DNA of 42,462 bases from a virus (taxonomy: Duplodnaviria; Caudoviricetes), in the IMG/VR virus record IMGVR_UViG_3300007508_000012, positions 1 through 42,462 of that record; one strand, 5' to 3'. Below the pieces are notes generated by a model that saw only the letters and a list, made by a program, of their open reading frames with translations, was not told the DNA's origin and did not search any database. Within the stretch, counting starts at the first letter, position 1. Every line of letters starts with the position of its first letter. Below, piece after piece: positions 22,816 to 41,552 of this stretch. The position numbers and the translations under genes are program-made.

Positions 22816-25800
22816 TTAATCTTCTTTAATAGCTTTGATTATAAAACTTGTATTAGCAGAAATATAATCACTTAGTCTTAAATTATTTATATTGATTATT
22901 CCAGTATTATAATCAATTGTTCCTACTGGATTCCACTTTTTAATCGTAAGTCTACCAAATGGATCGGTTAATAAATTATAGAATCCTTCTATCGGTTCAC
23001 AAGTAGTTGCATTCATAAAGAATACAAATCCTGTAGTGATAGTTTCATCATTTCCTAAATAAGTCCAATACACCTGTCCTTCTGAAAGACTAACATTTAA
23101 ATCATTATAGATAGGTGATATTGTCTTATTATTTATCTGTCTTGCTTTATAATATGCCCACTCTAAATTTGCACCATCCCAATACTTAACAACATCATCA
23201 ATTGCATATTCGATTGATGAATTCCATAACCTACCTTTCGTATCGAAAAGAGAGTATCGAGTAATACCATCAATGGAAGCGACTTCTGATATATTTATAG
23301 TAGTATCTTTAATAGCATATTTATTCCATATTCCATTATATGTGTTACATACACTTTCTGACCAACTATCTACACCAATAGGTAATATATAATCACATTG
23401 TTCAGTTGTGTAATTCCAGCTACCAATTGAACCTGATGCTGCCAAGCAATTAGATTTATTGATTTCTGATCCACCCAAATCTACTAAACACTCTCCAAGT
23501 TCTATAGTATATGTAGTATCTTCAGTCTTAATAGGAACAAGTCCCTTAATAAATGGATAATCTGACGGGAAGAATGAGTTAGTTTCAGTCTTAATTTGAA
23601 CAATCTCATCGGGTCTAATGTTTTCATCATATGCATTTGTGGGAGATAAACAAGTCCAAGTAACTTCATTATCCCAAGTTTGTGCATTTCTACCCAGTTT
23701 CCAGATCGGCTCAAATGTACCAGAATTACCTTCGTGAGAAGTTGGTTCTGTCCAAGTTTCTCCTGCATCAATACAATCACTCTTATCAAATATTGTTGTA
23801 TCGCTACAATCTCCAATCATATTAGTTGCAATACATCTGAAGTACTTATTATATACGATTGGAACTCTTTTCCAAATAATCTTGATGGCTCTATCGTATC
23901 TAATAATCGCAGATCCAATCTCATCAAACACTGGTGTTACAGGTCCATCTTGAATGAATCCACCCATTTCAACTTGATCAAAATCTGGCATATGAGAATC
24001 TAATTGTGCAGATAGTCCACTATCATAAATTTTCTCTACAACAAATGCTGATGTTGGATCGTCTGGAGCTCCAACAACATCATCTACTTGATAAGTTGTA
24101 TTTGGTCTCCAGAGAGATGTTTTAGATGAACTCTGGAATATACCATCAATCCAAATACTAATGATTGTTTGATTGAATAAATTAACTGATGGTACTAATG
24201 ATGAAGATCCATCAAAGTCAAAGTAATCAATAGTAGGTTTAAGAATTACAAAATCTGTCAAATCAATTACTATTACACTTGTATAATCTTCTAATGAATT
24301 AATAGTAATTTTATTATTATCATAATCATATACACATTTCTCTGGAGATTGATATACACCATCAGCATATACTTCTATATTTGAATCATTTGTAAGATCA
24401 AAGTCTAATTGAACTTCTCCATTAGTAGAAGAATATTTATTGAATGTAGGCAAGCTCCAGCCTGAAATCGGCATACCAGTAACTAGTTTATAATGCTCAA
24501 TAGAAACTTCTGCTCCATCATTAATACCAATGAAGTCTATATTATTTCCTTGCTCATCAATTACATATCCTCTCCAAGTGTTACCTTGACCTTCACATCC
24601 AGCTCTATAATTTTGATCAATTCCATTGACTTGAGTATTAGTAATGTCAACATTATTTGAGTTATAGCAACTAACAGGACTTTGTAATATACCATCTACA
24701 TATACTTTAATATATGAATCACTTTGAATGTCACCATACATTGCAATACTATCTTCTCCATATGCCCAAGTATATCCCGCAGCTTCACATAATCCCTTAT
24801 CTTGATAGTCTGGATTATTCCAAACATCTGTTCCAGTATTATCTATACAAGAATCACTATTTCCACTCCAGACAAAGTTCTCTGGTGAATAATGAACATA
24901 TTCCATATAGTCTGGATCAATAGTAGTAGTCTGTAAAGTTACTCTAGCATCAATAATTTCTGGTTGATGATCAATCAAAGTAATCTTATTTTCTTTTCTA
25001 TTAATTGCGAATACGTGATTCAATTGATGCGAAGTTGCTTTTACAACATCATCAATATTATATGTTGTTTGTGGTGTCCAAGTTGGAGCAACAACTTCTG
25101 GAAGATTTAGAGATACATCATCACCACTACAAGAAGCAATCTTTTCGTGCATCAATTCTGATATTTTAATATTTACTTTAGGAACACCAGGTGGTAATTG
25201 TTGCATTGTAAATCTACCCAATACAACATCAAATACTACAGTCCAATCTCTACATAAACTATGGAATGTTTGTGGATTAATATAACCACCAGAAGCTGAT
25301 GGAGTCATATTTAATTCATAATCTAAAGATACATCAAATAATGCACCAACATTAATTGTAGAACCAAGATTATATCTACCAATCAATTGCATCCCAACTG
25401 GATGAACATTATCTTTAACAATTGATCTATATTCTGAAATCTGTTGATCTGAATCGATCATATATGAGAATTCTTGATAGATGAAATTATCCTGCATTAC
25501 TTTCTTAGAGTCCAAGAATCCATCTGTTGTATACCAGAATCCTCTTTCTTTAATTATACCAGAATCCTCTTCATATTTATTATTTTCTATACCAGTTAGA
25601 CGACCTCTTCTTACTTTATAACCCTTAGAAGTTGCTAATATAGAATCCCCATAAGCAGAAAGATTCTCACCAAATCTCTCATTTCTATCATAGAATTCAG
25701 CTTCAATTTTTTCTAATTGTGTTGGAACTATCTTAGCTAAATCAAATATATACACTGCACCAGCATTCTCAACAACTGTTGATTGATACTTATATTTCTT

Positions 25801-28800
25801 AGTTGAACGCCTTCTCCAATTTCTTCTAGTATCACCGTATGAAGATGTAGAACCATTATAACCAGGAGATCCTACAATCAAATACTTATCTGATATTTTA
25901 ACAGATGCTCCAAACTCATCAGCTGTGGTTTTTTCATTTGATGTTATTACACGATAGTTTACTTGACCACTTTCATGTGCAAAGTAGTATTCAATATTAG
26001 CACCGAGTCCTAATAATTCTTGTGATTGTGTTTCTGTACCTAACCAAGAAACATCTTTTTCAGATTCACTTGATGATCTAATAGAGAACATTTCAGTAAC
26101 ATCTTGTTCAATCTCACATTCATTTTGACTACCATCCCAATGTGATTGCTTAATGTTGAAAATCCAAGTGTGACCAGCATTATCACAACTCAATGCTGTA
26201 GTTAATGTATCGTCAGTTGTCCAAGTATCTACATCACCACCGTTGTCAACATAACATTTACCACCAATATCATTTGTACCACTTAGTGCCCATGTTGGAG
26301 TTTCACAACTACCTTGTGTCCAAGTATTACCAGAAATTTGTTCACAACTTGATCTTGATGTATGAGTCGCATACCATTCACCACCATTAGCAACACAATT
26401 TGTTGCAGTAGTATGAGTCTCAATCCAATTTCTACCATCATATTCACAAGTAATTTTATCATAATGATTAGCTTGCCATACACCATAATTAGGAAATGAT
26501 TCACAAGTTGATCTATCAGTACTTTCTCCATCAGAACAAATACCATTCGTTTCCCAATCATCACAATATGTACCAGTAGAACAAGAACCATCATAATCAT
26601 AATCAGAACAATATGATCCAGTGAACTGACAACCAGTTGCAGCACCAGACCACGTTCCAGCGTAATGATGACAAGTTAATTGATCGAATGATTCATTAGT
26701 TTGTATTGTTGTTACTTCTTTGATACCTAATATTTTACCAGAGTAAATATTGAAATAGATATCATCATTTTCACCAGGATCTTTCAGAAAGATATCAGCC
26801 TGTTTCTTATCATTTTCATAATCTAAATCTGATGGATCAAGCGTTAATATATTTGTATTGATGATATCGATCTTAGTATCAGTTGTCTCTGAACGTTGCC
26901 ACTTACCATTAGCATTCTTTATTAATGTATGAACAACACCACAATTATCATATGTACCATATGTTTCATTAGGCGATCCAATAGCAATAGTATCACCCGA
27001 CCCACACATACAAATAGAAGAACCAAACTTTGCTCCTTGTATTGGAGATTCAGTTGTGATATCATATTCATATGAGTTTACGTCAGTGTCACTAGGGGAA
27101 GATTTTTGAGACCAGTATCCATTACTATTCTCTCTATAAATAAAGACTTTACCAACTCCACTTGTCAATTCAAATGTTCCAGTTCCACCAATAACTTCAC
27201 TTCTAACATTTGCATTTGGAGCTCCAATAGCAAGTTCTTTTGTTGTTTGATTGAATGAGATAGTATATCCAAATTTTAGATCTGAAATATGATCCAAAAC
27301 CGGTACCCATATACGCTCCATTAAATATCCATCCGCCCAACTATTTCCAACTTTCTTGAATAGATATACTACACCACTATTTTTTACTGATCCTTCAATC
27401 TCAACATCTTCGTTTGGAGCGCCAATGAATATATAATCATTAGATATTATAACTGAATAGCCAAATTGTCCTTCAATTTTAGCATTAATATTTGGAGATT
27501 GTAATGTGCGCTGAAGTTCCCACGTTTCTCCCTTATCACTTGTCTGATAAATGTATGCTTTACCAGATTTTTCTAATGAACCATCTTCGTTTGGAGCACC
27601 GATAACAACTACATCATCGTATGAAGAAATAGCTGACCCAAATTGTGTTTTCTTAGGATTTGTAACATAATGACTAGGGAATATTTTTGAATGAAGTTTC
27701 CATAATGCACCACTTTTCTTTAATATATGTACAGTAGAAATTCTATCAATATGACCTAATTTTGTTCCAGCTTCTCCAACAAATGCTATATCATCTTCAA
27801 AATTATTAACATCATTGGCTTGCAAAATATTAACATAGCTACCAAATTCTTCAAATGATACAGAATCTTCTTTTTGTATAAGATCTTGTGAAATTCTCCA
27901 ATTCTCTTTATTGAGAACTAATTGCTTAGATCCAATATTCTTGAATGGATATACTATTCCTGTATTTTTAGAATATTTTGGGTGTCCAGCAAATAGATAA
28001 TCATCTTCAATATGAATTGTTTTACCAGTACAAATTTTCTCTAAATTATCAAGATTTGTTGCACCAGCAAAATGATTATGATCTGGATTTGGATTATCTA
28101 CTATATATACACGTTTCCAAGTATTTCTAACTCTATTAAATACATATACACTTCCCTTATTAGATTCGGTTGGTGCAGCTACAGCTAATTTATCAACATC
28201 AAATTTATTTCCATCATCATCTACAGGAGATTCGAATATATATAATGCTGAACCAAATCCAGGAGTTTTCTTATCCCATTCTGCATATAATTTAGTTACA
28301 ATCGAATATTTGAATACTCCATTCTCAACTTTATAATTATCATATGCATATACTACACCTCCATTAACACTTGAAGGCGTTTCTTGATTTGGTGATCCAA
28401 TCATCATATAATTTTCTGTCATCATCACTGACACACCAAATTTAGAATTTAGTATTGTATCATTATTTGTGATATTAGCTGGACCTAGACGATTAATATT
28501 TGTCCATTCGTGAACATCATCTTCTTTCCAATAAATGTGTACAGATCCGATACCAAAATCTTCTGGCTTCTTATAAGTTGTTGGATCATTTTCCCAATTT
28601 GTTAATGATGTAAAGTATGTTTGATAATCATTATCACCAATACCTTTCGGCTCACCAACTAATAATATGTTTTCTCTAATATCAACTGATGCACCAAACA
28701 TAGCTTTTTCAATTGATCTAGCTGGATTTATTGGAGCATTACCAGCAACTGCTGTATCATAATAAAATTTTCCATCTTGAACTATAACTTGTTCACCACC

Positions 28801-30978
28801 TGATGCATTTGCTAATGTTATTGTATCATTAGCATAATCATATGTAATATCAGATGGATTAACTAATACATCATCCATATGAATTGTTAATATTGATGTT
28901 GAATCAATATCAAAATCAGTTGTGAATGATGAAGTTCCTGCAGGAATCGTATATTCGTGATGTTGTGTTGTTGTATCAAGATAATATAGATGTACAGATC
29001 CAGCTTGCTCTTTCATTGTAGCTTCTTCATATCCAACAGCGTTTGAATATGGCGCACCAATAGCTAATCTAATCTTGCCACCAGTAGTTCCTGCTGTACC
29101 ATCATATGCTAATTTGAGCGAATAACCAAATCCATATTGTTGTTCACCAATAATATAATCAGGATCTAATACTTGTTGTAGTCTCCAACCAGCATCTTCT
29201 TCTCTTTTAGAATAGATATAAACGTGTCCTACAGATGAATTATCCATCACATCTTGATAAATGTTTCCTGGCGCGCCTATAGCCAACCAACTCATTGATC
29301 CATCAGACTCAGTTTTATCTAATAATGATACTCCAAATCCAAAATGTTCATTATCATACTTATTATATGTTTTAGATACAATAGTATTATTCCATTCGTG
29401 ATAATAATCAAAATCTATAGGAAGTTGCAGTCTACCAGTATTTTCATTATCGACCCAAGTATCAGTAGCATAATCATAGGTCTTGTTTGTATCATCTTCA
29501 ATCCACTCAGACCCATTAAATCTATATAAGTATACTGCACCAGCATTGATATATCCATCAGTAGATTCAATATTCAATACTTTATTAACTGTAACAGGAG
29601 CTCCAGTAGTTTCATCAATTGATTTATCAACTTCAAATGAATAGATCCAGTCACCACCGACATTATTACAAGTTTCAGAATCATTAATTACTGATCCATC
29701 AAGATTTGTTTCTGAACAAGTGGGATCATATATTGATACTACATTGAAATATTGATTACCTCCACCTAAACCAGATTCGATCTTCAATACATCATATACT
29801 TTTACACTACCAGTATCTACGTAATTACCTGCTTGATCTGTTGTCTTAAATTCTGTTTCATTAGCAGTACCAATAACATAAAGCGGATCATCGTTATTTT
29901 GTATGTGTTGGGTTGTCTCTTCATCGTGTCGAATTTCTTCTTCTGATGGTGCACCAATCACCATCAAGTCGCCACTTCTGTCCAAAGAATAACCGTGTGC
30001 AGAATATGCTCTTGCATTTTTCTGTCTTAGATTATTTTGACGAACACCCCATTTATTTTTCTTAGAGATGATTGTCGCATTATCAACTTCAGTCTCTTTC
30101 ATTTCATCTGGATCAATATCATCAATCTCAAGATTTCTAATGACAATACCTTCACCAAATTCAAAATCACCACTAATAGATTTTAGATAAAGAATATTAT
30201 TATCTTCCTCAATTAGTCGTGTCTTATCATTGGATACAAATGCTCTTGCTCCAGAGATAACACCAACAATTTCTTGATCATAGAATTTCTCTAATTCTTG
30301 ACCTTTCTTATCAACAACAATATATGATGTATCATTCCATCGACCATCTGATGCTCTTAAAATATCTACTTTAGGATAATAAAAATCAATATCATCTTCA
30401 AATACAACATTAAATAGAAATTTATATGATGCTTCTGTACCCTTTGCTTTGTAAAATTCACGAATATTCTTTAAGATGAGTTTGACATCTTCTTTAGTAA
30501 GATCTTCTCTTAAAGGAATGTTTGGAATATATTGCTTCTTATACTCGGCAAGATAATCATCGATCATATTCTTATCGATATCAGTTTCTTCAAGCATATT
30601 AGTTATCATACGATAAATTCCGTATGATGTTGGATGATATGTTACACCAGCATCCCAGTCTGGAATATTATCATCCCAAGCTGTTATATAATCTTTAAAT
30701 TCCCAATATTCACTACCATTCAATCCTGTTGGATGATTGTAATCGTCAGATATATGTGTTTGTTTACATGCAAATGCAATAGCAATACTATCATCACTAA
30801 TTTCTGTCGTATTAACGATTTTGATTGTGTCTTGAGAAATGTATTCCTTTTCAATAAACTTAAAATATCCACCTATAAAATCTACAAATAGTGGATGTTC
30901 TTCTTTTACAAAATCAGGAACAAATCTCTCAGCAAGTATTGATAGTTTTTTTGAGCTAGACTGTAAAGAAATTGTCAT
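22816..30978 (-). CDS. gp7: Baseplate wedge initiator gp7-like, expanded with FG-GAP propellers, Cys modules and CBM-like domains
   Basis: 2720 aa. gp7-like core segments (PDFVKEEHP.FV.F..YF; KNIREFYKAKGTEASYKFLF; YYPK..ILRASDGRW; GFLDS...QDNFIYQEFSY.I.S.....YR..VK..VHPVG) flank many FG..V.....LxIGAP...GxVYIY repeats; lies between gp6 and gp8. Confidence 0.8.
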   Translation of the reverse strand: MTISLQSSSKKLSILAERFVPDFVKEEHPLFVDFIGGYFKFIEKEYISQDTIKIVNTTEISDDSIAIAFACKQTHISDDYNHPTGLNGSEYWEFKDYITAWDDNIPDWDAGVTYHPTSYGIYRMITNMLEETDIDKNMIDDYLAEYKKQYIPNIPLREDLTKEDVKLILKNIREFYKAKGTEASYKFLFNVVFEDDIDFYYPKVDILRASDGRWNDTSYIVVDKKGQELEKFYDQEIVGVISGARAFVSNDKTRLIEEDNNILYLKSISGDFEFGEGIVIRNLEIDDIDPDEMKETEVDNATIISKKNKWGVRQNNLRQKNARAYSAHGYSLDRSGDLMVIGAPSEEEIRHDEETTQHIQNNDDPLYVIGTANETEFKTTDQAGNYVDTGSVKVYDVLKIESGLGGGNQYFNVVSIYDPTCSETNLDGSVINDSETCNNVGGDWIYSFEVDKSIDETTGAPVTVNKVLNIESTDGYINAGAVYLYRFNGSEWIEDDTNKTYDYATDTWVDNENTGRLQLPIDFDYYHEWNNTIVSKTYNKYDNEHFGFGVSLLDKTESDGSMSWLAIGAPGNIYQDVMDNSSVGHVYIYSKREEDAGWRLQQVLDPDYIIGEQQYGFGYSLKLAYDGTAGTTGGKIRLAIGAPYSNAVGYEEATMKEQAGSVHLYYLDTTTQHHEYTIPAGTSSFTTDFDIDSTSILTIHMDDVLVNPSDITYDYANDTITLANASGGEQVIVQDGKFYYDTAVAGNAPINPARSIEKAMFGASVDIRENILLVGEPKGIGDNDYQTYFTSLTNWENDPTTYKKPEDFGIGSVHIYWKEDDVHEWTNINRLGPANITNNDTILNSKFGVSVMMTENYMMIGSPNQETPSSVNGGVVYAYDNYKVENGVFKYSIVTKLYAEWDKKTPGFGSALYIFESPVDDDGNKFDVDKLAVAAPTESNKGSVYVFNRVRNTWKRVYIVDNPNPDHNHFAGATNLDNLEKICTGKTIHIEDDYLFAGHPKYSKNTGIVYPFKNIGSKQLVLNKENWRISQDLIQKEDSVSFEEFGSYVNILQANDVNNFEDDIAFVGEAGTKLGHIDRISTVHILKKSGALWKLHSKIFPSHYVTNPKKTQFGSAISSYDDVVVIGAPNEDGSLEKSGKAYIYQTSDKGETWELQRTLQSPNINAKIEGQFGYSVIISNDYIFIGAPNEDVEIEGSVKNSGVVYLFKKVGNSWADGYLMERIWVPVLDHISDLKFGYTISFNQTTKELAIGAPNANVRSEVIGGTGTFELTSGVGKVFIYRENSNGYWSQKSSPSDTDVNSYEYDITTESPIQGAKFGSSICMCGSGDTIAIGSPNETYGTYDNCGVVHTLIKNANGKWQRSETTDTKIDIINTNILTLDPSDLDYENDKKQADIFLKDPGENDDIYFNIYSGKILGIKEVTTIQTNESFDQLTCHHYAGTWSGAATGCQFTGSYCSDYDYDGSCSTGTYCDDWETNGICSDGESTDRSTCESFPNYGVWQANHYDKITCEYDGRNWIETHTTATNCVANGGEWYATHTSRSSCEQISGNTWTQGSCETPTWALSGTNDIGGKCYVDNGGDVDTWTTDDTLTTALSCDNAGHTWIFNIKQSHWDGSQNECEIEQDVTEMFSIRSSSESEKDVSWLGTETQSQELLGLGANIEYYFAHESGQVNYRVITSNEKTTADEFGASVKISDKYLIVGSPGYNGSTSSYGDTRRNWRRRSTKKYKYQSTVVENAGAVYIFDLAKIVPTQLEKIEAEFYDRNERFGENLSAYGDSILATSKGYKVRRGRLTGIENNKYEEDSGIIKERGFWYTTDGFLDSKKVMQDNFIYQEFSYMIDSDQQISEYRSIVKDNVHPVGMQLIGRYNLGSTINVGALFDVSLDYELNMTPSASGGYINPQTFHSLCRDWTVVFDVVLGRFTMQQLPPGVPKVNIKISELMHEKIASCSGDDVSLNLPEVVAPTWTPQTTYNIDDVVKATSHQLNHVFAINRKENKITLIDHQPEIIDARVTLQTTTIDPDYMEYVHYSPENFVWSGNSDSCIDNTGTDVWNNPDYQDKGLCEAAGYTWAYGEDSIAMYGDIQSDSYIKVYVDGILQSPVSCYNSNNVDITNTQVNGIDQNYRAGCEGQGNTWRGYVIDEQGNNIDFIGINDGAEVSIEHYKLVTGMPISGWSLPTFNKYSSTNGEVQLDFDLTNDSNIEVYADGVYQSPEKCVYDYDNNKITINSLEDYTSVIVIDLTDFVILKPTIDYFDFDGSSSLVPSVNLFNQTIISIWIDGIFQSSSKTSLWRPNTTYQVDDVVGAPDDPTSAFVVEKIYDSGLSAQLDSHMPDFDQVEMGGFIQDGPVTPVFDEIGSAIIRYDRAIKIIWKRVPIVYNKYFRCIATNMIGDCSDTTIFDKSDCIDAGETWTEPTSHEGNSGTFEPIWKLGRNAQTWDNEVTWTCLSPTNAYDENIRPDEIVQIKTETNSFFPSDYPFIKGLVPIKTEDTTYTIELGECLVDLGGSEINKSNCLAASGSIGSWNYTTEQCDYILPIGVDSWSESVCNTYNGIWNKYAIKDTTINISEVASIDGITRYSLFDTKGRLWNSSIEYAIDDVVKYWDGANLEWAYYKARQINNKTISPIYNDLNVSLSEGQVYWTYLGNDETITTGFVFFMNATTCEPIEGFYNLLTDPFGRLTIKKWNPVGTIDYNTGIININNLRLSDYISANTSFIIKAIKED
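22884..22891 (-). promoter_or_regulatory. Possible T4-type late promoter (TATAAATA) for gp8
   Basis: Exact consensus in the gp7 3' end, 84 nt upstream of the gp8 ATG; could be chance in AT-rich DNA. Confidence 0.45.
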
Positions 30979-30990
30979 TTTTTATTTCCA

Positions 30991-32736
30991 TTATTGCATT
31001 TGATTAAGTGTAATATTTAAATCATCAAGAATAATTAGATTATTCTTCTTTGTATATACATCATCTATAGCAGTATCAGCATACAATCTTAATGTAGAAC
31101 CATCACTTATCTTAGGAGTAAATCTTTGAATAGATATCACACCATTTTCATAATCTATAGATCCCTTTTTCTCTTCAACTATATTATCCAACTCATCTCT
31201 AATAACTAAATTTCCCGCACCATCGTCAGTAATTCTAAATTTATTACCGTCAATATCAGTGTAAATTTCTGATGAGAAATTAGTTTTAGTAATAGCATTA
31301 TCAAAATCCATTGTATAAATTCCTTGTTGACCAGAATCTATAATCAATTCTTTATATATAACCAGTTCTGTCAAGTTATTTGAAATTGATGAATCTGCAC
31401 TATCAATAATAGATAATATTTTTGAGTATTTTAAAAAGCTATCGAATCGATTCAATTCAGATATAAAATAATCTCTAACATTATCTTCAATCAGACTCAT
31501 AATCTGATTAGCACCAAACTTTGATTTATTTGGATTATAATTTACTGTTGTGTCAATAATAACGAATGTGTATGATGGAGATAAAATCTCTGGTACTACT
31601 GCAATCATATTATACTTATTTAGTATATCTTCTTTAATGTATTCTTCTTGCTTGGGGGATAAACTTAGTTTATTCTTTGGCTTGATTGAGATGAATACTT
31701 TACCATATTCAGGTGGATCATTATCTTCTCCACCCCAAACATTAATAGATTCAATATTATTGAACTTATTCATCAGTACTGAGAAATAGTCTTGTTTAGT
31801 AACAGCTCTACTTTGCATCTCATAATTCTTAGGAGCAACTAATTTAACAGAATCGATTGATTCTCTATTCTTACCATCATATGATGGTGTTAATGTCATA
31901 ACAACCATATCACTAGAAGAGAATTTATATCCATTATTATCATACACATCATCTACAATCTCGAAATAATAACACTCATTTCCAGTTTCACCAGTAGTCG
32001 ATAAATATTCAACAACAATACTATCTTCATTGATCGGATCTTTACCGACAATTCCCTTTCCAAAGTAGACTTCCATTTGATAATTTTCGATCTCTTGAAG
32101 GAAATATACCTCTGATAAACTAGTTAATTCCACAATATTATCAAAACGATCCCACGGCTCACTAGAACCAACAGTTAGTGTCATATTACTAATATCAATT
32201 GTTGGATCACTAATAATGAATTTTTGTTGTTTATTCGATTGATCATAAGTCCAACCAATACTCTTTTGTTCACCTTGATATACATTGATATCAGATGTGA
32301 ATAGTCCATTCTCATCCTTTTTGATGATTAATGAATCCATTAATACAAAGTTGAATGACTCTCCCTGATCACCTTTCTTCTTACCAGTGAATCTAGTTCC
32401 TTTTGGAAAATTGATTGATGTAGTCTCTTCAGTTGTAACATTAATTGTTACATTGATTGTTGCAATAGAGCCTTCACTTTGATTAGGAAGATAATTGAGT
32501 TCTTTTGCTTTTGATATTACTGAATTTCTCTGTGTTGAACTATCTAGAAACATTTCATTAGCGATCATATTTCCATAGAAACCCATATAGTGTGTATTAT
32601 ATGATAAAACATCTAATAAAACACTTAATGCGCTTCCTTCAAAATTATAATCTTGAAACTCGTTTTGCGTTTTAAGAAAATTTTTAAGATTGCTTTTGAT
32701 TGAATCAAAATCAAGATCTGCTAATTCTAACTTCAT
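30991..32736 (-). CDS. gp6: Baseplate wedge subunit gp6
   Basis: 581 aa with LDFDSIKSNLKNFL..Q.EF.DYNFEGSALSVLLDVLSYNTHY, NEMFLDS, QSRAVT..DY and VWGGEDNDPPEYGKVFISIKP. Confidence 0.95.
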   Translation of the reverse strand: MKLELADLDFDSIKSNLKNFLKTQNEFQDYNFEGSALSVLLDVLSYNTHYMGFYGNMIANEMFLDSSTQRNSVISKAKELNYLPNQSEGSIATINVTINVTTEETTSINFPKGTRFTGKKKGDQGESFNFVLMDSLIIKKDENGLFTSDINVYQGEQKSIGWTYDQSNKQQKFIISDPTIDISNMTLTVGSSEPWDRFDNIVELTSLSEVYFLQEIENYQMEVYFGKGIVGKDPINEDSIVVEYLSTTGETGNECYYFEIVDDVYDNNGYKFSSSDMVVMTLTPSYDGKNRESIDSVKLVAPKNYEMQSRAVTKQDYFSVLMNKFNNIESINVWGGEDNDPPEYGKVFISIKPKNKLSLSPKQEEYIKEDILNKYNMIAVVPEILSPSYTFVIIDTTVNYNPNKSKFGANQIMSLIEDNVRDYFISELNRFDSFLKYSKILSIIDSADSSISNNLTELVIYKELIIDSGQQGIYTMDFDNAITKTNFSSEIYTDIDGNKFRITDDGAGNLVIRDELDNIVEEKKGSIDYENGVISIQRFTPKISDGSTLRLYADTAIDDVYTKKNNLIILDDLNITLNQMQ

Positions 32737-32737
32737 T

Positions 32738-33136
32738 TTATCTTATCCTATGTAAAAATAGTGTCATAATCATTGGTTCAATAGTGTTTCTTATAGTGAA
32801 TTCAATAGTTATATTGTAACCGTGCCCATCATTTGATGAAATAATTTCAACATTATGTAATGTAACTCTCGGTTCGAAATTCGTTATACAGGCTGTAATA
32901 TGATTTTTCAATAATATTCTAGTATTGATCGTATCTAATTCAAATAACAATTCTTTCACACCAGATCCGATCTCTGGATGAAAGAGTCTTTCACCGAAAT
33001 TTGTCATTATAAGATTTCTTACAGATGTTTTAATCGCATTTTCATTATATTTTCTTACAATATCTTTAGTATTCGGATGCGGCTTAAACATCATATCTAT
33101 ATCTGAAAATAATCGTACTGATCTTTTAATGGCCAT
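32738..33136 (-). CDS. gp25: Baseplate wedge subunit gp25
   Basis: 132 aa with FSDID..F..HP...DI.....ENAIK.SVRNLI.T..GER.F.P.IGS....LLFE...FEPRV. Confidence 0.95.
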   Translation of the reverse strand: MAIKRSVRLFSDIDMMFKPHPNTKDIVRKYNENAIKTSVRNLIMTNFGERLFHPEIGSGVKELLFELDTINTRILLKNHITACITNFEPRVTLHNVEIISSNDGHGYNITIEFTIRNTIEPMIMTLFLHRIR

Positions 33137-33163
33137 TGTATTAATTCCTATTCCTTTATCAAT

Positions 33164-33171
33164 TATTTATA
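33164..33171 (-). promoter_or_regulatory. T4-type late promoter (TATAAATA) for the gp25-gp6-gp7 unit
   Basis: Exact consensus, intergenic, 28 nt upstream of the gp25 ATG. Confidence 0.8.
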
Positions 33172-33177
33172 CTTGAT

Positions 33178-35235
33178 CTACATCTTTTCTGGAAATGTAT
33201 ATGCTCTCCTATCGTTATGAGCAAACACATTATTACTACCAGTTGTTATCGTGATACCACATTCATATGAATCACCAATTCTAGCTATTGGTTTATTATT
33301 AACGAATACAGTCGGAGAGCCATTAATCAATTTTGTTATATGTTCTGGACAGCCTGCAGGGGTTGGTTCATATGGATGAGATGTATTCGTATCACTTTCT
33401 CTATGGACTGAAATATTATTAACGAATACATTATCACTACCTGTTGCAGTTCTCGGAATAACACCACAATGATGTTCACTCACTCTATCATATCCTTTTC
33501 TTGCAACAGACGCTTGATATCCATGAGCCCATATATCTCCAGGATCATCTGGTAGAAGTGCATCTCTATTACTACTACAAGCTGAATGAATACTACCATA
33601 TATAGAATCATACCAAGATTGAATGAATTCAACTTTTTCATATGATAACACCTCTGGAACAAAGTTTGGAAGTTCTTTCAATACATCTAGCACTGTCGCC
33701 CCAGGCCCTCGAACGATAATTTCTCCAATTAATCTCATCAACCATTCATCTTCAAAAAAACTATTATCATTAAATATTTCCCATATTGGAAGATAAGAAC
33801 CATCTAGAGGATTATAAAATGGTTTGAACAATTCTAAAAATGACATTACCCCACCGCCAGATAATGAGTAATATTTAAGATCTCTCATCCAAGATGGAAT
33901 ATATACATCGTTATTTGTATCAAGAGCATATTTTTGAATATCTATAATATCAGATCCATTTATTTCTGGTACATCATTTCTTTCAAGTGGATATGTTGTG
34001 CCTAATCTATGACCATTTTCGTGAAAAAGTAGTTGTAATATTTCTGTTCCGGCATCAATATTATCACCTATTGGCATAGTAACTAGAAATGCATCTATAT
34101 TTCCCATATACATTCCATTGACTGCAGCAATATTATCACCATATGATAGTGATGTTCCCCAATACCAATTTGTTTTAATTCCCTTTACACCAACATATAT
34201 TGGTACAGCAGGTGCAGGAAATACTAAATCTCTATTATTCCAAATATCAAAAAAGTTGTATTTAAGACTTTTTAATGCTTCAATAATATAATTAGCTATA
34301 TGCTCTTTTGCTGCATCAAGACTTTGTAGATGATCTGAATAAGGATAATTATTTCCGCTACCCAATTCAGCCATTGCTATTGTAGGGGCCAGTGGTGTAC
34401 CTAATCCACCATATATATCATCTCTTCTATACCAAACTAAATCTCCAGAATAAAATGAAAAAAATGAATCTGGATAATCACCATCTGGATAGGATCTAAC
34501 TTCGGATTCTATTCCATCATTTTCGCCAATATCTCTAATATTTTTCCAATTGAGATTTTTTATATATTCACGTAATTGTTCTTCTTGATCTTGTGATGGA
34601 GCTCCACCACAGCTCATATCTATTAATGGGCACGGCCAAGCATCTGTTCCATTAGTTATAATTTCTTCTAGTCTATCTGCTCTAGCATTATTTCTATTTT
34701 GCCAGGATGGAGTCTGTTGGTTTACAGTCCAAGTTCTTAGATTATTGATTGCTGCTGGCCAATCACCAGTTGTCATTTGATTAGTAAAATTTGGAAAGGA
34801 GTTATTACTACCAAACTGATATATCATATCATACCAGACTGTTTGCACTTCTTCTTGCATATTCTCGAATGTACAATTGTTTGTTGGATTAGCATCATTC
34901 CAATAAATTGTTGATTTATTCAAGAATATTGTATAAATCCAATCCCATAATAGATCGGATTCTGTAATAGTCAATGGATACCAAGTTGGGTTGGCAGCCA
35001 CTATTTGATTTATTTTAGAATTTACGTGTGAAGATGATCCAGTGATATGTTGAAATATTTCTACTTTATCACGTAATGTTTTATTGGTTTGTTGTTCTAA
35101 AAGATCAAACTCAGATGTAGATCTAGCATTAGTATTTACACCAGGGCCTATACTAACTTTACCCTCATCAAAATAAGGATTTAATCCAGGGCCTTCATTC
35201 CCTTTAATAAAATTAATATCAATATTAATAGGCAT
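33178..35235 (-). CDS. PAAR spike-tip protein (gp5.4-like) fused to an N-terminal T4-lysozyme/pesticin-like muramidase and a central HExxH putative metallopeptidase
   Basis: 685 aa. aa 1-~198: EG......YxD.G..SIG.G, DMIYQFG, GDW..A..NL, RA.R. aa 405-409: HENGH. Last ~100 aa: ARKGYD...GSDNVFVNN..VHR.SD...H...H....GSPTVFVNNKPIARIGD...CG.....GSNNVFA. Confidence 0.85.
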   Translation of the reverse strand: MPINIDINFIKGNEGPGLNPYFDEGKVSIGPGVNTNARSTSEFDLLEQQTNKTLRDKVEIFQHITGSSSHVNSKINQIVAANPTWYPLTITESDLLWDWIYTIFLNKSTIYWNDANPTNNCTFENMQEEVQTVWYDMIYQFGSNNSFPNFTNQMTTGDWPAAINNLRTWTVNQQTPSWQNRNNARADRLEEIITNGTDAWPCPLIDMSCGGAPSQDQEEQLREYIKNLNWKNIRDIGENDGIESEVRSYPDGDYPDSFFSFYSGDLVWYRRDDIYGGLGTPLAPTIAMAELGSGNNYPYSDHLQSLDAAKEHIANYIIEALKSLKYNFFDIWNNRDLVFPAPAVPIYVGVKGIKTNWYWGTSLSYGDNIAAVNGMYMGNIDAFLVTMPIGDNIDAGTEILQLLFHENGHRLGTTYPLERNDVPEINGSDIIDIQKYALDTNNDVYIPSWMRDLKYYSLSGGGVMSFLELFKPFYNPLDGSYLPIWEIFNDNSFFEDEWLMRLIGEIIVRGPGATVLDVLKELPNFVPEVLSYEKVEFIQSWYDSIYGSIHSACSSNRDALLPDDPGDIWAHGYQASVARKGYDRVSEHHCGVIPRTATGSDNVFVNNISVHRESDTNTSHPYEPTPAGCPEHITKLINGSPTVFVNNKPIARIGDSYECGITITTGSNNVFAHNDRRAYTFPEKM

Positions 35236-35239
35236 TTTT

Positions 35240-36946
35240 TTATATTACCACATCAGATTTTTTAACCCAGTCAAATCCATTCATATTATAACATTCAGCT
35301 TGTTCAATATCTAAATATGTACGAATCACTCCATCTTTATTTACAAAGCAATCACCTTTTGGTAATATAGCATCATCTTCATACACTTTCACTGTCCAGG
35401 AAGACCACTTTCCAGCATACTTTTCACAAGTTGCTTTTCCTTTTGGATATTCTCCAATAATTAATTTACCATATTTCTCAAGTATAACATTTTTAACTTT
35501 TTCACTTGCTCTAGTGAAATCACAAAACGTTTTTTCTGATGTATTTAATGGTACTGGTTTCTCTTCTTTCTTAGGTTTAATATCTGTTACTTGAGTTGGA
35601 GTTCTTAAACAAGTATTATCAAATCCTTCTTGAATCCATTGTGTCTGATACGCTTCATCTGCATCTGCATTTTTGATATTAATACTAGAACTTGAATCAT
35701 TATCTTTAACGATTTTACCAAATAGAGTATGAACTTGTTCTTCAGCTTCCACTAATGATGATTTTGCTGCACCCTCAAATTTACTAACATCTGGAGCCCA
35801 ACTTTTCCATTGTGCTACCTCTGCATCTGAAATTTCTCTACATACCCATTTACCATTTGAATTTAAGCATTCATCTTTTCCTGATGCGAATGGATCACCA
35901 CCTTGACATACACAAGATTGATTTGTTGATACTAATGCTTCTTGTTTCTTATATTTACGACAGTCAGCAGGATTTGTCCATTGATCAACATTAACAATAT
36001 CATCCAATTCACTAATAGAATGATTAACACTTTGTTCTGAAAATTCAACATCCCAAGATTTAATAGATTCTTGATGCACTTTAGGTAATGACAAAAGAAT
36101 TTCTTGTGAATCTAATGGTCGTAAATTATCAATTGATTTTGGTACAGATCCAATTGGTGTTGAAGATTTATTACCAGCAATTGTATTGATTGTCGGTATT
36201 TTAATACCATCTTTGAATAAATTTCCTGAAGATTTATCAAGAAATGAACTAATAGTTTCTTGCATTTCATTTGTTGAAGATGATGATTCAGGAATTTCAT
36301 TCATATTTGCGAATGGTCCACCAAGAATAGAAGTTGTAAATTTTTGCATACTTTCTACTTCAGCTGCAGATACTTCTCTACATACCCAAGAACCACCACT
36401 AGATAAACATTCATTCTCTCCTGATGCGAATGGATCACCACCTTGACATACACAAGAAGTATTTTCTTTTTGAGGTTCTGATACTACAATATTTTTTTTG
36501 AATGACTCTGATGATACCTTAGATGATAATACTGATTCTGATATATCACTATCAAACTTATCGAATATATCAATAAACGATCCTTTCTGATCTTCTGGAA
36601 TAAATGATGATAATTGTTCTCCCTCTGATAATTTCAAATTATCAGAAATGATATCTTTTTGAGAGAATATATTTTCTAATCCAGACGATATTCCAGGATT
36701 AGTTTTTATATTACCACCTAATGAATTCGTGATAGATGACTGAAAAGATGAACTATCACTAAATGAGGGTAATGATTCTTTTGAAAATCCAAATGACTTA
36801 CCAATCCCTTCGATATCAAGTGAACTGCCCTCACTTAATGCTCCGCCCCAAGATTTATTAGACGATATATGTTCACTTAAAGATGAACTTGTAATTTTAT
36901 CTTTAATAGAAGCAGAATTTTTAATTATATTATCAAAAAAACTCAT
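35240..36946 (-). CDS. Unknown Ser-rich protein with Cys-rich repeats in the spike cassette
   Basis: 568 aa between gp5 and the PAAR gene. Low-complexity Ser/Lys/Asp N-terminus, two SCVCQGGDPFASGxxECLxxxGxWVCRE units and two further C...G.W units. Confidence 0.7.
   Translation of the reverse strand: MSFFDNIIKNSASIKDKITSSSLSEHISSNKSWGGALSEGSSLDIEGIGKSFGFSKESLPSFSDSSSFQSSITNSLGGNIKTNPGISSGLENIFSQKDIISDNLKLSEGEQLSSFIPEDQKGSFIDIFDKFDSDISESVLSSKVSSESFKKNIVVSEPQKENTSCVCQGGDPFASGENECLSSGGSWVCREVSAAEVESMQKFTTSILGGPFANMNEIPESSSSTNEMQETISSFLDKSSGNLFKDGIKIPTINTIAGNKSSTPIGSVPKSIDNLRPLDSQEILLSLPKVHQESIKSWDVEFSEQSVNHSISELDDIVNVDQWTNPADCRKYKKQEALVSTNQSCVCQGGDPFASGKDECLNSNGKWVCREISDAEVAQWKSWAPDVSKFEGAAKSSLVEAEEQVHTLFGKIVKDNDSSSSINIKNADADEAYQTQWIQEGFDNTCLRTPTQVTDIKPKKEEKPVPLNTSEKTFCDFTRASEKVKNVILEKYGKLIIGEYPKGKATCEKYAGKWSSWTVKVYEDDAILPKGDCFVNKDGVIRTYLDIEQAECYNMNGFDWVKKSDVVI
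35816..36457. repeat. ~100-bp imperfect direct repeat, offset 540 bp, with a 39-bp exact core (35879-35917 and 36419-36457)
   Basis: The core TCCTGATGCGAATGGATCACCACCTTGACATACACAAGA is identical in both copies; the remainder is diverged but alignable. Confidence 0.92.
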
Positions 36947-38161
36947 TTACCTGTCCTTATTTAAGTGAATATGTCTAGCTGTAATTTCAGTATTAAGAAC
37001 AGAATCTATTTCTATTCTTTCGTTTACATCGTGTGTATATTGTCCATAATTGTGTATTTGATAATCTGATGTAGTATCAATGAACCAAGCACCCTTCCCA
37101 TTTGATTTATCATTTGATCGACTTGACCCAATACTCCAATTCATATTACCATCTACTTGAACGTTCCAATCACCGTGAATATGTTGTTGTAGTGTACCAC
37201 CAATTTCTAAAAAGCATTGTTTATCAACTTTGATGTTAGCATTACCTTCAACATTAATCGTTAAGTTTCCACGATCACCACTAGGTTCTTTTGCAGAACC
37301 TTCAACTGTATCTTTAATTAGAATAAAAGTATCACCACATATGATCTCATAATTATTGTTATATACTTTACGTACCATTTTACCATCAGGATACATTTCA
37401 AAGAATGTTCCTGATCTATGACATAAATGAATTCTTTCGTGTTCTCTAGTATCATCAAACTCCATTACGTGACCACTTTCAGTTTCAGTAACATGATTGA
37501 AAGGATATCTAGCATTATAGGGTGAATGTGGTTCATTCCATAATTGATCACTACCAAAGAGCATTTGATTTTCAGAAAGCGCAAATCGTCCTTTAGTATC
37601 CCAACTATCTTTCTTTCTTCTTGCTAGTGTTTTATGTTCACCTAATTTTGTCTTATATTTTTTATGAGTTTCTGGATCTACCCATTCATCAATTGATTCA
37701 TTTCCACTCTCTGGATTAATTCCTCTAGCTAATCTATTTGTATCTGGTTCGTTGAGATGATCTTTTCTAGGATATATTTTATTTGGATCATTAAACCCAT
37801 CATCTCTTGCTGGCTCTGTTGGAATTCCAGGTAATGTTCCAATAATGATGGGTGATTGAGCCATATCACCATCAAGAAAATATCCAATAACGTGTGATCC
37901 CTCAACTATTCCAACAGGCGCTTCACCAACTCCACTAATTGATGCTGATGTAACGGGCATCATAACTTGAGCCCAAGGAAGATGATCAGTTGGTATACCT
38001 TCTGTTTCAGTTGTTGAATTTCTTCTAGAAGAGTGTAATCCAATAACTCGTACTTTAACTCTTCCTAATCGTGCAGGATCATTTCTACTTTCAACAACAC
38101 CATGAAACATTGAGAAATTTTGTATATCTTTAAATTGTGATGATAAAAAACTATCTGACAT
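36947..38161 (-). CDS. gp5: Baseplate central spike gp5-like (OB-fold plus short beta-helix, no lysozyme domain)
   Basis: 404 aa with GVVESRNDP..LGRVKVRVIGLH...LPWA..MMPVTSA..SG.G, EPDTNRLARG, YPFNHV.ETESGH..EFDDT...ERI...HRSGTF.E..PDG, beta-helical repeats and a terminal IHLN. Confidence 0.92.
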   Translation of the reverse strand: MSDSFLSSQFKDIQNFSMFHGVVESRNDPARLGRVKVRVIGLHSSRRNSTTETEGIPTDHLPWAQVMMPVTSASISGVGEAPVGIVEGSHVIGYFLDGDMAQSPIIIGTLPGIPTEPARDDGFNDPNKIYPRKDHLNEPDTNRLARGINPESGNESIDEWVDPETHKKYKTKLGEHKTLARRKKDSWDTKGRFALSENQMLFGSDQLWNEPHSPYNARYPFNHVTETESGHVMEFDDTREHERIHLCHRSGTFFEMYPDGKMVRKVYNNNYEIICGDTFILIKDTVEGSAKEPSGDRGNLTINVEGNANIKVDKQCFLEIGGTLQQHIHGDWNVQVDGNMNWSIGSSRSNDKSNGKGAWFIDTTSDYQIHNYGQYTHDVNERIEIDSVLNTEITARHIHLNKDR

Positions 38162-38165
38162 AATA

Positions 38166-39407
38166 TTATCCTTTACTCATATCATAAAACGACTCTTTTC
38201 TAAGTTCTAGATTTGTCGTATGGGCAATCTTTCCTGGTTTATCTGATGGAGTTATAGTATGTGTAACTGACCATATCAACCACTTTCCTGCATATTGTCT
38301 ATCATATAAAACTTCTTTAGCATCTCCTGATGGTGTTGTATTAGATGTTGATTTTAGATTTAATGATATTGGAGCTCCAAGTACAATGAACGTATTACTA
38401 CCTAATGTAACATTTAATATATGTTGATTCCAGTTGTACATTTTTTGTTCTCTCTGCATCATATACTCATCAACTTTATTATATGGACTTTCTGGTATTT
38501 TCGGAAACATATTGAATGCTCCATTACTAATACTTACATTATCACTAGAATGAATTGGATTTTTACCAGAGACTGCCCCTGAATTATTATAATTATTCCA
38601 TTCAGAATGATAATCTAATGTATGATGTTCTATCTTTTTCTTAATTGGATTATATGTACATAGATTATTTTTCAATGCTCCCTTTCTTTGCGCTTGTAAT
38701 GCATCACCACATTTTACAATAGAATATCCTAATGCTCTCCATCTATTACCTAGCATTTTATTACTATCAGCTGTGTTAAAATTTATTGCAGCAATTGGAT
38801 CTTCTGAAATTAGTGAAGATAATGTGACAAACATATATCCAAATCTATTTTCAAAAAATACATAATCTGTATATCCGTTAGTAGATATTGCAGTTCTTAA
38901 AAGAAATTTGATTGCTGCCAGCGGAGATAAATTTGGTATAATAATTGTCTTTGAGTATTTGGATAACTCAGCTCCAACCATCCCATCTGTATCTCCAAGT
39001 GCTTCATAACAAATTTGTTTAACAATTTCAGATTCAGTTTCTACATATGATTTACTAATACGTATATTAGAATTAATATATTGTATAGGTGATATTAAAT
39101 CTAATCTTAAAAATTTTCCACGATTGATCTCAGTTTCTGATGCACTATTTATTTTGAATGTTTTTTGTATCTCTGGTGCGTTTTCATCTGATCGAAATGC
39201 TATGTATAGATATTCATCTCCGATTATGGGTAGTTCAGCCCTTAAATTTTGTTGTTCATCTCGTAATATTAATTCACCATATGTTGGACCATCAATAGTT
39301 TCTATTATCGAAATGCTATTCAATATATTTGAAACGTCAATATGCTCTCCATTAAATCGCACAAGACTTAATGCTGTTAGATTTCCATATTGCTCAATTA
39401 ATGCCAT
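38166..39407 (-). CDS. Baseplate hub protein (gp27/GpD-like)
   Basis: 413 aa with ISIIETI, LPIIGDE, RISKSY, IIPNLSP..AI, YVFFENRFG..F and YAGKWLI.SVTH.I; lies between gp53 and gp5. Confidence 0.7.
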   Translation of the reverse strand: MALIEQYGNLTALSLVRFNGEHIDVSNILNSISIIETIDGPTYGELILRDEQQNLRAELPIIGDEYLYIAFRSDENAPEIQKTFKINSASETEINRGKFLRLDLISPIQYINSNIRISKSYVETESEIVKQICYEALGDTDGMVGAELSKYSKTIIIPNLSPLAAIKFLLRTAISTNGYTDYVFFENRFGYMFVTLSSLISEDPIAAINFNTADSNKMLGNRWRALGYSIVKCGDALQAQRKGALKNNLCTYNPIKKKIEHHTLDYHSEWNNYNNSGAVSGKNPIHSSDNVSISNGAFNMFPKIPESPYNKVDEYMMQREQKMYNWNQHILNVTLGSNTFIVLGAPISLNLKSTSNTTPSGDAKEVLYDRQYAGKWLIWSVTHTITPSDKPGKIAHTTNLELRKESFYDMSKG

Positions 39408-39409
39408 TA

Positions 39410-39898
39410 TTATTTACTCATTAATTCATTAAATTGAGAAACAAATGTTGATAGATATTTCTTATTCAATATTTTTAAGTTGCGTTTTGCATCATTTATA
39501 AACATTGCATTCTCTAAATTTGTTATTGGTATTGCGTTTGGATAATCAGCATCTACCATTCTTTCATTATTAGGATCTTCATAATGATGAAGTTCATTAT
39601 GTTTACCCTTACCATAAATTTCAGTGACATACTTAAAAACTTCATCTTCTTGTAATACCCAATCATAATATGGGTCAATAACATTATTCATTAATAGTAT
39701 AACCCAATAGTATTGTGGATCACCATATATATTGTTCGACAATTGTTCAGGTGTCATAAATTCTTTTAATATGAACTCATAAAAGTATGATGTATTGTTT
39801 ATTATATCTTGTAAAACAATAGATCTACTAATGATATTTGTCGCATATTTACCATCATATCCATTTATTGTGAAATTTTTGAAATAATTTTTACTCAT
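39410..39898 (-). CDS. gp53: Baseplate wedge subunit gp53
   Basis: 162 aa with YFKNF, TPEQLS..IYGDP.YYWVILLMNNVIDPYYDW, HHYE and NDAKR.LKIL. Confidence 0.92.
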   Translation of the reverse strand: MSKNYFKNFTINGYDGKYATNIISRSIVLQDIINNTSYFYEFILKEFMTPEQLSNNIYGDPQYYWVILLMNNVIDPYYDWVLQEDEVFKYVTEIYGKGKHNELHHYEDPNNERMVDADYPNAIPITNLENAMFINDAKRNLKILNKKYLSTFVSQFNELMSK

Positions 39899-41067
39899 TA
39901 GTAACCTTCCATTAAATCATCTTTAGTTATCATATCAACTTCTTGGAATCTCAAATCCATCTGAACATCTACTGGAAAACCATTTTCAAATGTTGCCCAA
40001 AGTGCTTGTGGTGTATAGTTTACACTCACATTAGTTAATGCGCTCCAAGTAGTCTTAAATAATAATGAATTAACTTCACCTGAACTATCTCCACTCTTAG
40101 TATTACCAAAATGAATTTTCCATAATTCAGGATATTGTAACAGGAATCCAGCCGTATCTTTTATTATTTGTGAGGATGAATGATATCTAAATAGAAAAAT
40201 AATTCTAATCACCTCTTCAACTTCTAATTTTGAAGTTGGTTGAAATCTAAATGACATTTCAAATTGTCTTAGATTTGTTCTTTTAAATGTTAATCCTAAT
40301 CGTGGATTTATAACTTGACCTATAGATTGCTCTCTAGATCTAAGAGAAAGACCTTCTGATACTTTTGACACCATCTGACCTATTAGTTGTTTCCCTATAA
40401 CCTCGACTCCAGCTGCTAAAGATGATCCTGCTTCTTCACTTTTAGGATTAAAAAATGAATTATGATATACACCTTCCGATTCATTCCATCCGTGTGCAAA
40501 TGCATTTGTCAATTGACCCGGTTGATATAATGATATTGAAGATAATGGTTTTAATGGTGGAATAGCTCGTAATTGTTCTTCACGTTTTTGATTTGCATTT
40601 AAATTTTTCTTTGTATCATTAACATATTTATTATATGCTGAAACTGAACCATTTAATAAAGCTAGCCCACCCGCGGCCTTTGCCATCGTACTTACCCCAG
40701 TAAGTCCTACTCGATCAAAGACGTAACCAGCGCCGAGAGCGGCACCCCCAACAATAAGACTCGTTCCAACTGATTCTGTCGCCTCTTCATCAGTCTGAGG
40801 ATCCGATGATCCAAGTACCGTTTCTGTTACTTTACCAACACCGGCGAAATGATCCAATACTTCGTTTAAATTGAAATTTGCATTACCTGTTGCTTGCCAA
40901 GTTTTATATCTTTCTTGTGCAATATCGATTGGTGTATATGAAGAAAAATTGACATAATGACCTGTTTCTTCAATATTTTCTGGATAGTGAAGCATTATAT
41001 TTTCCTTGAACTTCTTGCCATCAAAGAAATAATCTTTCACTACATTATCAAATGTATTCTTTCCCAT
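39898..41067 (-). CDS. gp48: Baseplate tail-tube cap gp48-like (start revised from 41115 to 41067; 389 aa)
   Basis: L.YP, ISLYQP, INP...L.F....LRQF...F.F.P.S..E...V..II..FR, YP..W.I and LTNVSVNYTP...F.NG.PV...M.L.FQEV motifs. The ATG at 41067 has an AAGGT SD and lies downstream of the late promoter; 41115 lies upstream of it. Confidence 0.85.
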   Translation of the reverse strand: MGKNTFDNVVKDYFFDGKKFKENIMLHYPENIEETGHYVNFSSYTPIDIAQERYKTWQATGNANFNLNEVLDHFAGVGKVTETVLGSSDPQTDEEATESVGTSLIVGGAALGAGYVFDRVGLTGVSTMAKAAGGLALLNGSVSAYNKYVNDTKKNLNANQKREEQLRAIPPLKPLSSISLYQPGQLTNAFAHGWNESEGVYHNSFFNPKSEEAGSSLAAGVEVIGKQLIGQMVSKVSEGLSLRSREQSIGQVINPRLGLTFKRTNLRQFEMSFRFQPTSKLEVEEVIRIIFLFRYHSSSQIIKDTAGFLLQYPELWKIHFGNTKSGDSSGEVNSLLFKTTWSALTNVSVNYTPQALWATFENGFPVDVQMDLRFQEVDMITKDDLMEGY

Positions 41068-41094
41068 TTTACAATACCTTATGTGAGAGTTACG

Positions 41095-41110
41095 ATATAA
41101 ATATTTATAT
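41095..41110. promoter_or_regulatory. Divergent overlapping T4 late promoters in a 16-bp perfect palindrome
   Basis: ATATAAATATTTATAT contains TATAAATA on + (41096-41103) and on - (41109-41102), exactly at the switch in gene orientation. Confidence 0.85.
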
Positions 41111-41552
41111 GACATATAAGGGTAAATATCGTGTAAAGAATCCGTCTAAATACAAAGGTGATTCATCTAATGTTATATATAGATCGAGTTGGGAATATCG
41201 TTTTATGAAGTATTGTGATGGACATTCAGGAGTAGTTGAGTGGAATAGTGAAGAAATAGTTATTCCATACTACTCGCCTGTGGATGGAAGAAAGCATAGA
41301 TATTTTCCTGATTTTTGGTGTAAGATAAAGCAATCTAATGGAGAGATAAAAGAATTCTTAATTGAGGTAAAGCCACTTAAAGAGACTAGACCTCCTAAAA
41401 AGCGAAGTAGAACTACTCCACGATATCTACGAGAAGTGGAGACCTGGGGTGTAAATTCAGCTAAATGGCAAGCGGCTCAAGGAGTTTGTAAGAGAAAGGG
41501 ATGGGAATTCAAATTATTAACAGAGAAAGAGTTGATGCGTAATGGCAAGTAA
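41109..41552 (+). CDS. gp4: Head completion nuclease gp4-like (start revised from 41052 to 41109; 147 aa)
   Basis: MTYKGKY...NP.KYKGD...IYRSSWE..FM..CD....V..W.SEE..IPY.SP.D...HRYFPDF...LIEVKP...VN.AKW.AA, a TnsA-like PD-(D/E)xK fold. Confidence 0.93.
   Translation: MTYKGKYRVKNPSKYKGDSSNVIYRSSWEYRFMKYCDGHSGVVEWNSEEIVIPYYSPVDGRKHRYFPDFWCKIKQSNGEIKEFLIEVKPLKETRPPKKRSRTTPRYLREVETWGVNSAKWQAAQGVCKRKGWEFKLLTEKELMRNGK

Follow-up and report, generated by a model that had tools for sequence, protein, structure and literature searches.

A probable phage spike-tip protein predicted to carry a pesticin-fold lysozyme and an orphan HExxH domain ahead of its PAAR domain

The viral DNA analyzed here, IMG/VR record IMGVR_UViG_3300007508_000012 (Duplodnaviria; Caudoviricetes), has a length of 42,462 nucleotides, and this whole stretch is referred to as the window. 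It covers the tail genes of an uncultured marine myophage of T4-like type and is part of the genome only. The genes are transcribed in the order tube cap, gp53, tail protein, gp5, an orphan of 568 amino acids (aa), the spike-tip gene that is the subject of this work, gp25, gp6, a 2720-aa wedge protein and gp8 (Table 1). The tip protein combines a predicted lysozyme domain, a linker rich in Cys, Gly and Pro (aa 199-215), an orphan middle domain containing an HExxH motif and a C-terminal PAAR domain. A preliminary description of this DNA had listed the open reading frame (ORF) and a series of motifs, and each was found in its place, including DMIYQFG (aa 136-142), GDWPAAINNL (157-166), EHHCG (587-591), SHP (619-621), CPEH (629-632) and ECG (658-660).

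Table 1. Coordinates in the window of the tip gene, its domains and candidate functional residues, and neighboring features
Feature	Position	Strand	Remarks
Spike-tip gene (lysozyme, orphan HExxH domain, PAAR)	33178..35235	-	685 aa, 77.5 kDa, pI 4.6
Predicted pesticin-fold lysozyme domain, aa 1-198	34642..35235	-	profile, model and fold search
E14	35194-35196	-	T4 lysozyme-type candidate catalytic residue
D23	35167-35169	-	T4 lysozyme-type candidate catalytic residue
S28	35152-35154	-	T4 lysozyme-type candidate catalytic residue
N34	35134-35136	-	at the slot of the essential Asp207 of pesticin
Orphan middle domain, putative zincin, aa 203-572	33520..34629	-	
HENGH, H405-H409	34009..34023	-	candidate zinc-binding motif, followed by RLG
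FEDEW, aa 494-498	33742..33756	-	E495/E497 candidate third ligand
Predicted gp5.4-type PAAR domain, aa 575-672	33220..33513	-	metal site H588, H620, H632, C659
Tube cap (gp48-like), gp53, tail protein (phrog_350; probable hub by position)	38166..41115	-	
gp5 central spike	36947..38161	-	404 aa; OB fold straight into beta-helix region; ends H397-I-H399-LNKDR
568-aa orphan between gp5 and tip gene	35240..36946	-	14 Cys
gp25 baseplate wedge	32738..33136	-	directly downstream of tip gene
TATAAATA	33164..33171	-	just past tip gene; second copy at 41102-41109 heads the gp48-to-tip block

The tip gene is genuine and shows no sign of a chimera. The exact protein is present on 20 contigs, and its 90% cluster comprises nine members, which are found on 47 contigs altogether and do not differ in length (685 aa). 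In all four metagenome runs examined (eight are listed), the region 30900-35908 was recovered on one contig with flat depth and without substitutions, except for a small change at codon 365 in one run. These runs are marine or seawater metagenomes from two studies and possibly the source of the window itself; they therefore argue against an assembly chimera but do not constitute independent replication. The GC content runs through the gene without a break.

The C-terminal domain matches the PAAR profile PF05488 over aa 587-663 (E 6.1e-11; 42.8 bits against a curated cutoff of 27). H588, H620, H632 and C659 align with columns that are at least 90% conserved in 51 PAAR proteins, leaving the metal site intact. 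The metal site of T4 gp5.4 likewise consists of three His and one Cys (PMC12407873). The gene occupies the gp5.4 position of the spike and baseplate block, between gp5 and gp25. We regard the domain as very probably a gp5.4-type spike tip, in agreement with the preliminary description. A survey of viral PAAR loci was evaluated for the best 80 of 384 loci, two of which belong to this phage. Among the other 78, 76 encode at most 135 aa, one (L116) carries a 453-aa C-terminal extension and the last has an open frame upstream that is apparently spurious.

Some further observations on PAAR genes were made. The close PAAR relatives L116 (4998-6641), P0037 and P0111 (52-60% identity) carry a C-terminal extension of 450-560 aa without family assignment that is apparently common to the three; L116 sits among head- and neck-like genes, away from gp5. 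The minimal PAAR genes in L114, L117, L119, L123, L126 and L152 lie outside the baseplate block and directly follow genes that, on reading their sequences, we labeled ribonucleotide reductase-like and glutaredoxin-like, and the PAAR gene of MIJ3 follows annotated nrdA/nrdB. In P0082 an intein that carries an HNH endonuclease splits the PAAR domain.

The N-terminal domain matches the Pfam profile Pesticin (PF16754) over aa 5-159 (E 1.1e-7), and both profile and fold assign aa 1-198 to the pesticin type. The lysozyme fold appears almost certain; the AF2 model used a pesticin-family alignment and is biased to the pesticin fold. The preliminary description had seen a T4-type lysozyme here; profile, model and fold search bear out the lysozyme, but on a pesticin-family scaffold rather than that of T4 lysozyme (T4L) proper. 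The equivalents of pesticin Glu178 and Thr201 are E14 and S28, with Ser replacing Thr, and that of Asp207 is N34, an Asp being kept in 55 of 56 relatives. D23, in turn, stands where the relatives have an otherwise invariant Pro, at the spacing of T4L Asp20 (E14-x8-D23-x4-S28, set beside the GH24 pattern Glu-x8-Asp-x5-Thr). The PF16754 domains of marine phages keep E-P-T-D in 55 of 56 cases. Because the essential pesticin Asp is Asn in the tip lysozyme, the predicted activity rests on D23. We consider it likely that the domain is active as a muramidase; its sequence suggests a domain that is lysozyme-like in its working, yet has an active site that is not canonically pesticin-type.

A PAAR-profile search of longer proteins returned 278 matches, and the following figures refer to the 120 listed. 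Apart from the tip protein (P0001), PAAR is N-terminal in 111 and C-terminal in 8 of the 119 others among these matches; none of the 119 contains HExxH, and a lysozyme was found in one, the 500-aa protein P0128. Accessions among the 120 include PF05257 in five, PF08291 (M15) in seven and PF07486 in eight phage or bacterial proteins; we take PF05257 to be CHAP and PF07486 to be Hydrolase_2. P0128 shares 35% identity with the tip protein across aa 1-236 (E 1e-37) and 43% in the PAAR domain. It retains E14, Y21 and D23, with Thr at S28 and Arg at N34; these residues were read from pairwise alignments because the N-terminus of P0128 is misregistered in the multiple alignment. Its cluster comprises two members on four Logan contigs, and the gene may not be from a phage. 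The middles of P0001 and P0128 have no detectable homology; the best local alignment places IDFIQ of P0128 opposite HENGH, and 72 to 640 of 1000 shuffles reach as high a score, so that it is not significant. Since P0128 has the same layout with a middle of no detectable relation, the arrangement lysozyme-X-PAAR occurs at least twice, with different X.

In a quick tree with long branches, the lysozymes of P0001 and P0128 cluster apart from 56 others (support 99 in the SH-like approximate likelihood ratio test), and the unusual active site appears to be common to the tip protein and this one relative. No further member of this subfamily was found in the viral contigs, genomes or metagenomes searched; the matches listed for a second metagenome search contained one ordinary pesticin-type gene. 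Word searches with the whole tip protein or its N-terminal domain gave self or nothing, but they also missed P0128, so their blanks are weak. By tblastn, PAAR was found at none of 78 non-self pesticin-domain loci. Across the viral contigs L026-L105 the pesticin-type lysozyme behaves as a mobile module, occurring stand-alone (about 175-195 aa), N-terminally in proteins of 600 to more than 1150 aa and C-terminally in proteins of 530-960 aa. Overall, a lysozyme-loaded spike tip with its cargo ahead of PAAR appears, from these comparisons, to be a real and rare architecture.

The middle domain was assessed by its motif and by a language model. HExxH arose by chance in 0.485% of 100,000 shuffles of the domain, and an HExGHxLG-like context in none of 100,000, this pattern having been drawn up after the sequence was seen. 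The only other HExxH among 20 minus-strand ORFs (13,321 aa) belongs to gp5 and is no peptidase motif there. In the ESM Atlas every Pfam-named neighbor of the domain is a zincin, with scores reaching 0.90 for aa 300-515 (M85, M26). A zincin fold is suggested as probable, and we incline, with less assurance, to an active peptidase as well. The peptidase is a lead from motif and language model. In metzincins (HExxHxxGxxH/D) a His or Asp stands three residues past the Gly; HENGHRLGTTY has Tyr there, and as no His follows HENGH, a metzincin was rejected.

Among eight protein variants of the cluster, all seven variable residues fall within aa 365-522 of the middle domain (P about 0.015 under uniform placement). 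This clustering would fit relaxed constraint and host-facing variation equally; the comparison concerns amino-acid variants only, and positive selection is not claimed. Y365I (window 34141-34144), a compound change of 4 nt, was seen in run X7, in L002 and in four of the eight variants. In view of changes that span about 470 nt in mid-gene and include this compound change, we set aside a diversity-generating retroelement.

Upstream of the tip gene, gp5 lacks a lysozyme domain. Its 820-aa relative in L013 (L013:5203-7665) carries a lysozyme in the T4 slot and, after the beta-helix, a second, endolysin-like domain (phrog_894), so that two hydrolases sit on the needle rather than on the tip. A six-frame search of the window revealed neither a second PAAR nor a second pesticin-type domain, and nothing in it matched the L013 lysozyme. 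The 568-aa orphan has no family match and its relatives come from this phage only; its N-terminal half is Ser-rich, and 12 residues recur exactly at aa 165 and 345, where assemblies break. The 2720-aa wedge protein (22816-30978, minus strand) has FG-GAP repeats and Cys-rich segments, and fibre-like genes of 2132 aa (DUF4815) and 2354 aa (Peptidase_S74 chaperone) follow it. The motif TATAAATA is presumably the T4 late-promoter consensus. Compared with L001, the tube-cap gene has 10 substitutions within 100 bp (40613-40713), near the L001 contig end, and 5 occur in the other 15 kb. No single host is indicated, since the identity of gp6 to its counterparts in phages of Desulfovibrio, Synechococcus, Pelagibacter and Caulobacter is about 33% in every case.

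We favor, with some reserve, a reading in which the tip protein is the single spike tip capping the gp5 trimer and brings a muramidase and a possible zinc peptidase to the periplasm. The termini of PAAR proteins lie at the base of the cone. The cone formed by PAAR would dock onto the beta-helix of gp5 at its blunt end, and the N-terminal cargo of about 65 kDa would fold back alongside the needle, in the space taken by the three lysozymes of T4 gp5; a putative RB43 tip of about 690 residues indicates that size is no bar. Sheath contraction would then drive the complex through the outer membrane into the periplasm, a delivery shown for the P2 spike. There the lysozyme would open the glycan with E14, D23 and S28. 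The middle domain is likely a second, exchangeable cargo and would cleave a peptide or protein of the envelope (cross-links or lipoproteins). The HEXXH domain of VgrG2b depletes membrane lipoproteins in vitro (PMC6899460). Given a lysozyme-free gp5 and a cargo-fused tip, it would likely be the tip that carries the wall-breaching enzymes into the host. The enzyme-loaded tip of the preliminary description gains from the missing gp5 lysozyme; its HExxH peptidase, present as a motif but with no predicted fold and with one relative devoid of HExxH, stays a lead. A bolder reading is conceivable but doubtful, namely a modular tip with two warheads, a fixed, rewired lysozyme and a swappable cassette, which here would be a new zinc protease family whose variable residues track the host. 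Driven into the periplasm, the cassette would cut a host protein of the envelope, be it a lipoprotein, the surface layer or an entry-blocking defence factor; such a phage system would be polymorphic-toxin-like, its cargo placed before PAAR.

Several findings weigh against the two-enzyme tip, and most of them concern the middle domain. It is without homologue or profile match in the sequence and profile libraries searched: the one match among 1.84 billion 50% representatives is the domain itself, IMG/VR gave self only, phage records nothing meaningful (a pair of weak Streptomyces entries at E 5), Pfam and NCBIfam no match at E 10, PHROGs nothing meaningful (best phrog_15386, of unknown function, E 0.004) and PDB sequences nothing meaningful. 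Its single-sequence AlphaFold model has a predicted local distance difference test (pLDDT) value of 33.6, with an unreliable helix, strands and then a helix at 393-403; Foldseek found no match, the query being this unreliable model. The Atlas rows share 109-128 of 256 features, where true family members typically share 170, and shuffled proteins reach a score of 0.9 in 4-10% of cases. No His lies downstream of HENGH, and the third ligand is a guess among seven Glu between 410 and 520 (E495/E497 plus five). In some cargoes of extracellular contractile injection systems the HEXXH motif is dispensable for toxicity (PMC13266070). Finally, P0128, the only relative with this layout, lacks HExxH. The tip may have one enzyme only, the middle acting as a spacer or being a degenerate domain of zincin fold that binds receptor, baseplate or peptidoglycan, with HENGH incidental or non-catalytic; the confinement of all variable residues to the middle, as on a relaxed or host-facing surface, would agree with this. 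Against it stand the rarity of the motif in shuffles (with the post hoc caveat for its wider context), the exclusively zincin identity of the named Atlas neighbors and the lack of detectable homology between the middles of P0001 and P0128. We rate this alternative as unlikely, though it is the best of the four considered.

The HExxH domain could, alternatively, act on proteins of the phage itself, maturing the tip or gp5 or freeing the lysozyme after entry. T4 gp5 is cut behind its lysozyme, and the domain lies between lysozyme and anchor, behind the Cys/Gly/Pro-rich linker. However, P0128 keeps the layout without any HExxH, and the variation is concentrated in this very domain; we judge self-processing to be improbable. 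Slightly less probable still is an inactive lysozyme-fold domain that binds peptidoglycan only, the pesticin-family Asp being lost. This Asp is essential in pesticin (PMC3390615) and in VgrG3cp (PMC9927483), and is Asn in the tip lysozyme. Yet D23, at the T4L spacing, takes the place of an otherwise invariant Pro, P0128 with its 35% identity keeps it, and no other lysozyme was found in the tail region. It is very improbable that gp5 closes itself by the HxH near its C-terminus, a mark of self-capping, tip-less spikes, and that the PAAR fusion docks elsewhere or is no virion part. This HxH has just five residues after it and lines up with the usual xLxLN end of the beta-helix in gp5 relatives that have small PAAR-like proteins encoded at their loci; the PAAR metal site is intact and its gene in the gp5.4 position.

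Phage tips have been treated as minimal cones, with wall-cutting assigned to gp5. The tip gene and P0128 suggest that the lysozyme can shift from the trimeric needle to the N-terminus of the monomeric tip, together with an interchangeable domain; if so, the tip would be a cargo platform in phages as in type VI secretion systems (T6SS). The tip lysozyme also offers a natural test of whether the pesticin scaffold works with an Asp in the T4L position. Were the middle domain a peptidase, it would form a family for which no homologues were detected and would hint at an entry barrier made of protein in a marine host.

Compared with known systems, the tip protein shares with T4 gp5-gp5.4 (PMC12407873) the PAAR tip with three His and one Cys, the gene position between gp5 and gp25 as in T4-like loci and a spike lysozyme. 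T4 gp5.4, however, is a cone of about 97 aa and the lysozyme resides in gp5 in three copies, whereas here one pesticin-fold lysozyme is predicted on the tip, none is on gp5, and an extra domain of 370 aa is present. RB43 orf205w, the putative tip mentioned above, sits on a T4-like spike but is not a PAAR protein. T6SS specialised PAAR proteins and evolved VgrGs likewise have enzymes that are joined to spike components and brought into the periplasm (PMC8651086), and the spike cargoes include a pesticin-type lysozyme (VgrG3cp, PMC9927483) and an HEXXH peptidase (VgrG2b, PMC6899460). These effectors differ in being bacterial C-terminal extensions with immunity proteins and one enzyme per protein; PAAR toxins are C-terminal extensions in the survey of prokaryote genomes in PMC8651086. 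The middle domain has no sequence match to T6SS effectors, and the tip protein does not belong to the specialised PAAR effectors, being surrounded by T4-like baseplate genes and reaching 46.8 bits with NF033420 against a cutoff of 124. Marine-phage PF16754 domains have the same fold and occur either alone or as an N- or C-terminal part of larger phage proteins, for example in a 619-aa pelagiphage protein whose gene adjoins an internal virion gene.

A tail-tip glycosidase paired with a peptidase is found in phi29 gp13 (M23) and SHEF14 ORF11 (glycosyl hydrolase and CHAP), which differ in that they are not PAAR proteins, have M23 or CHAP instead of HExxH and belong to podoviruses of Gram-positive hosts. 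The glycosidase part of phi29 gp13 is, we assume, a lysozyme domain. A literature search covering few subscription journals gave no lysozyme- or HExxH-bearing phage PAAR; earlier PAAR surveys may list N-terminal architectures. A phage parallel is Pseudomonas phage Milchi (XPP60747.1), which has, in the same gene order, a gp5 without Pfam lysozyme, an extra gene, a PAAR protein with a wall-hydrolase-like domain, gp25 and gp6; the M15-like domain of this PAAR protein (E 1.6e-4) is under the cutoff of Pfam. In Milchi and in MIJ3/PA5oct, where the PAAR protein has 340 aa, PAAR is N-terminal and followed by a single C-terminal domain (M15-like in Milchi, without Pfam match in MIJ3), whereas here the cargo is N-terminal, includes a predicted glycosidase and has a second domain alongside. 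The novelty in phages tentatively raised in the preliminary description is reduced for the class as a whole by Milchi, but among the matches listed no other protein combines lysozyme, HExxH and PAAR. Taken together, enzyme-bearing phage tips are, judging by such annotations, already in public records, and the N-terminal lysozyme with an orphan second domain appears as a variant of them.
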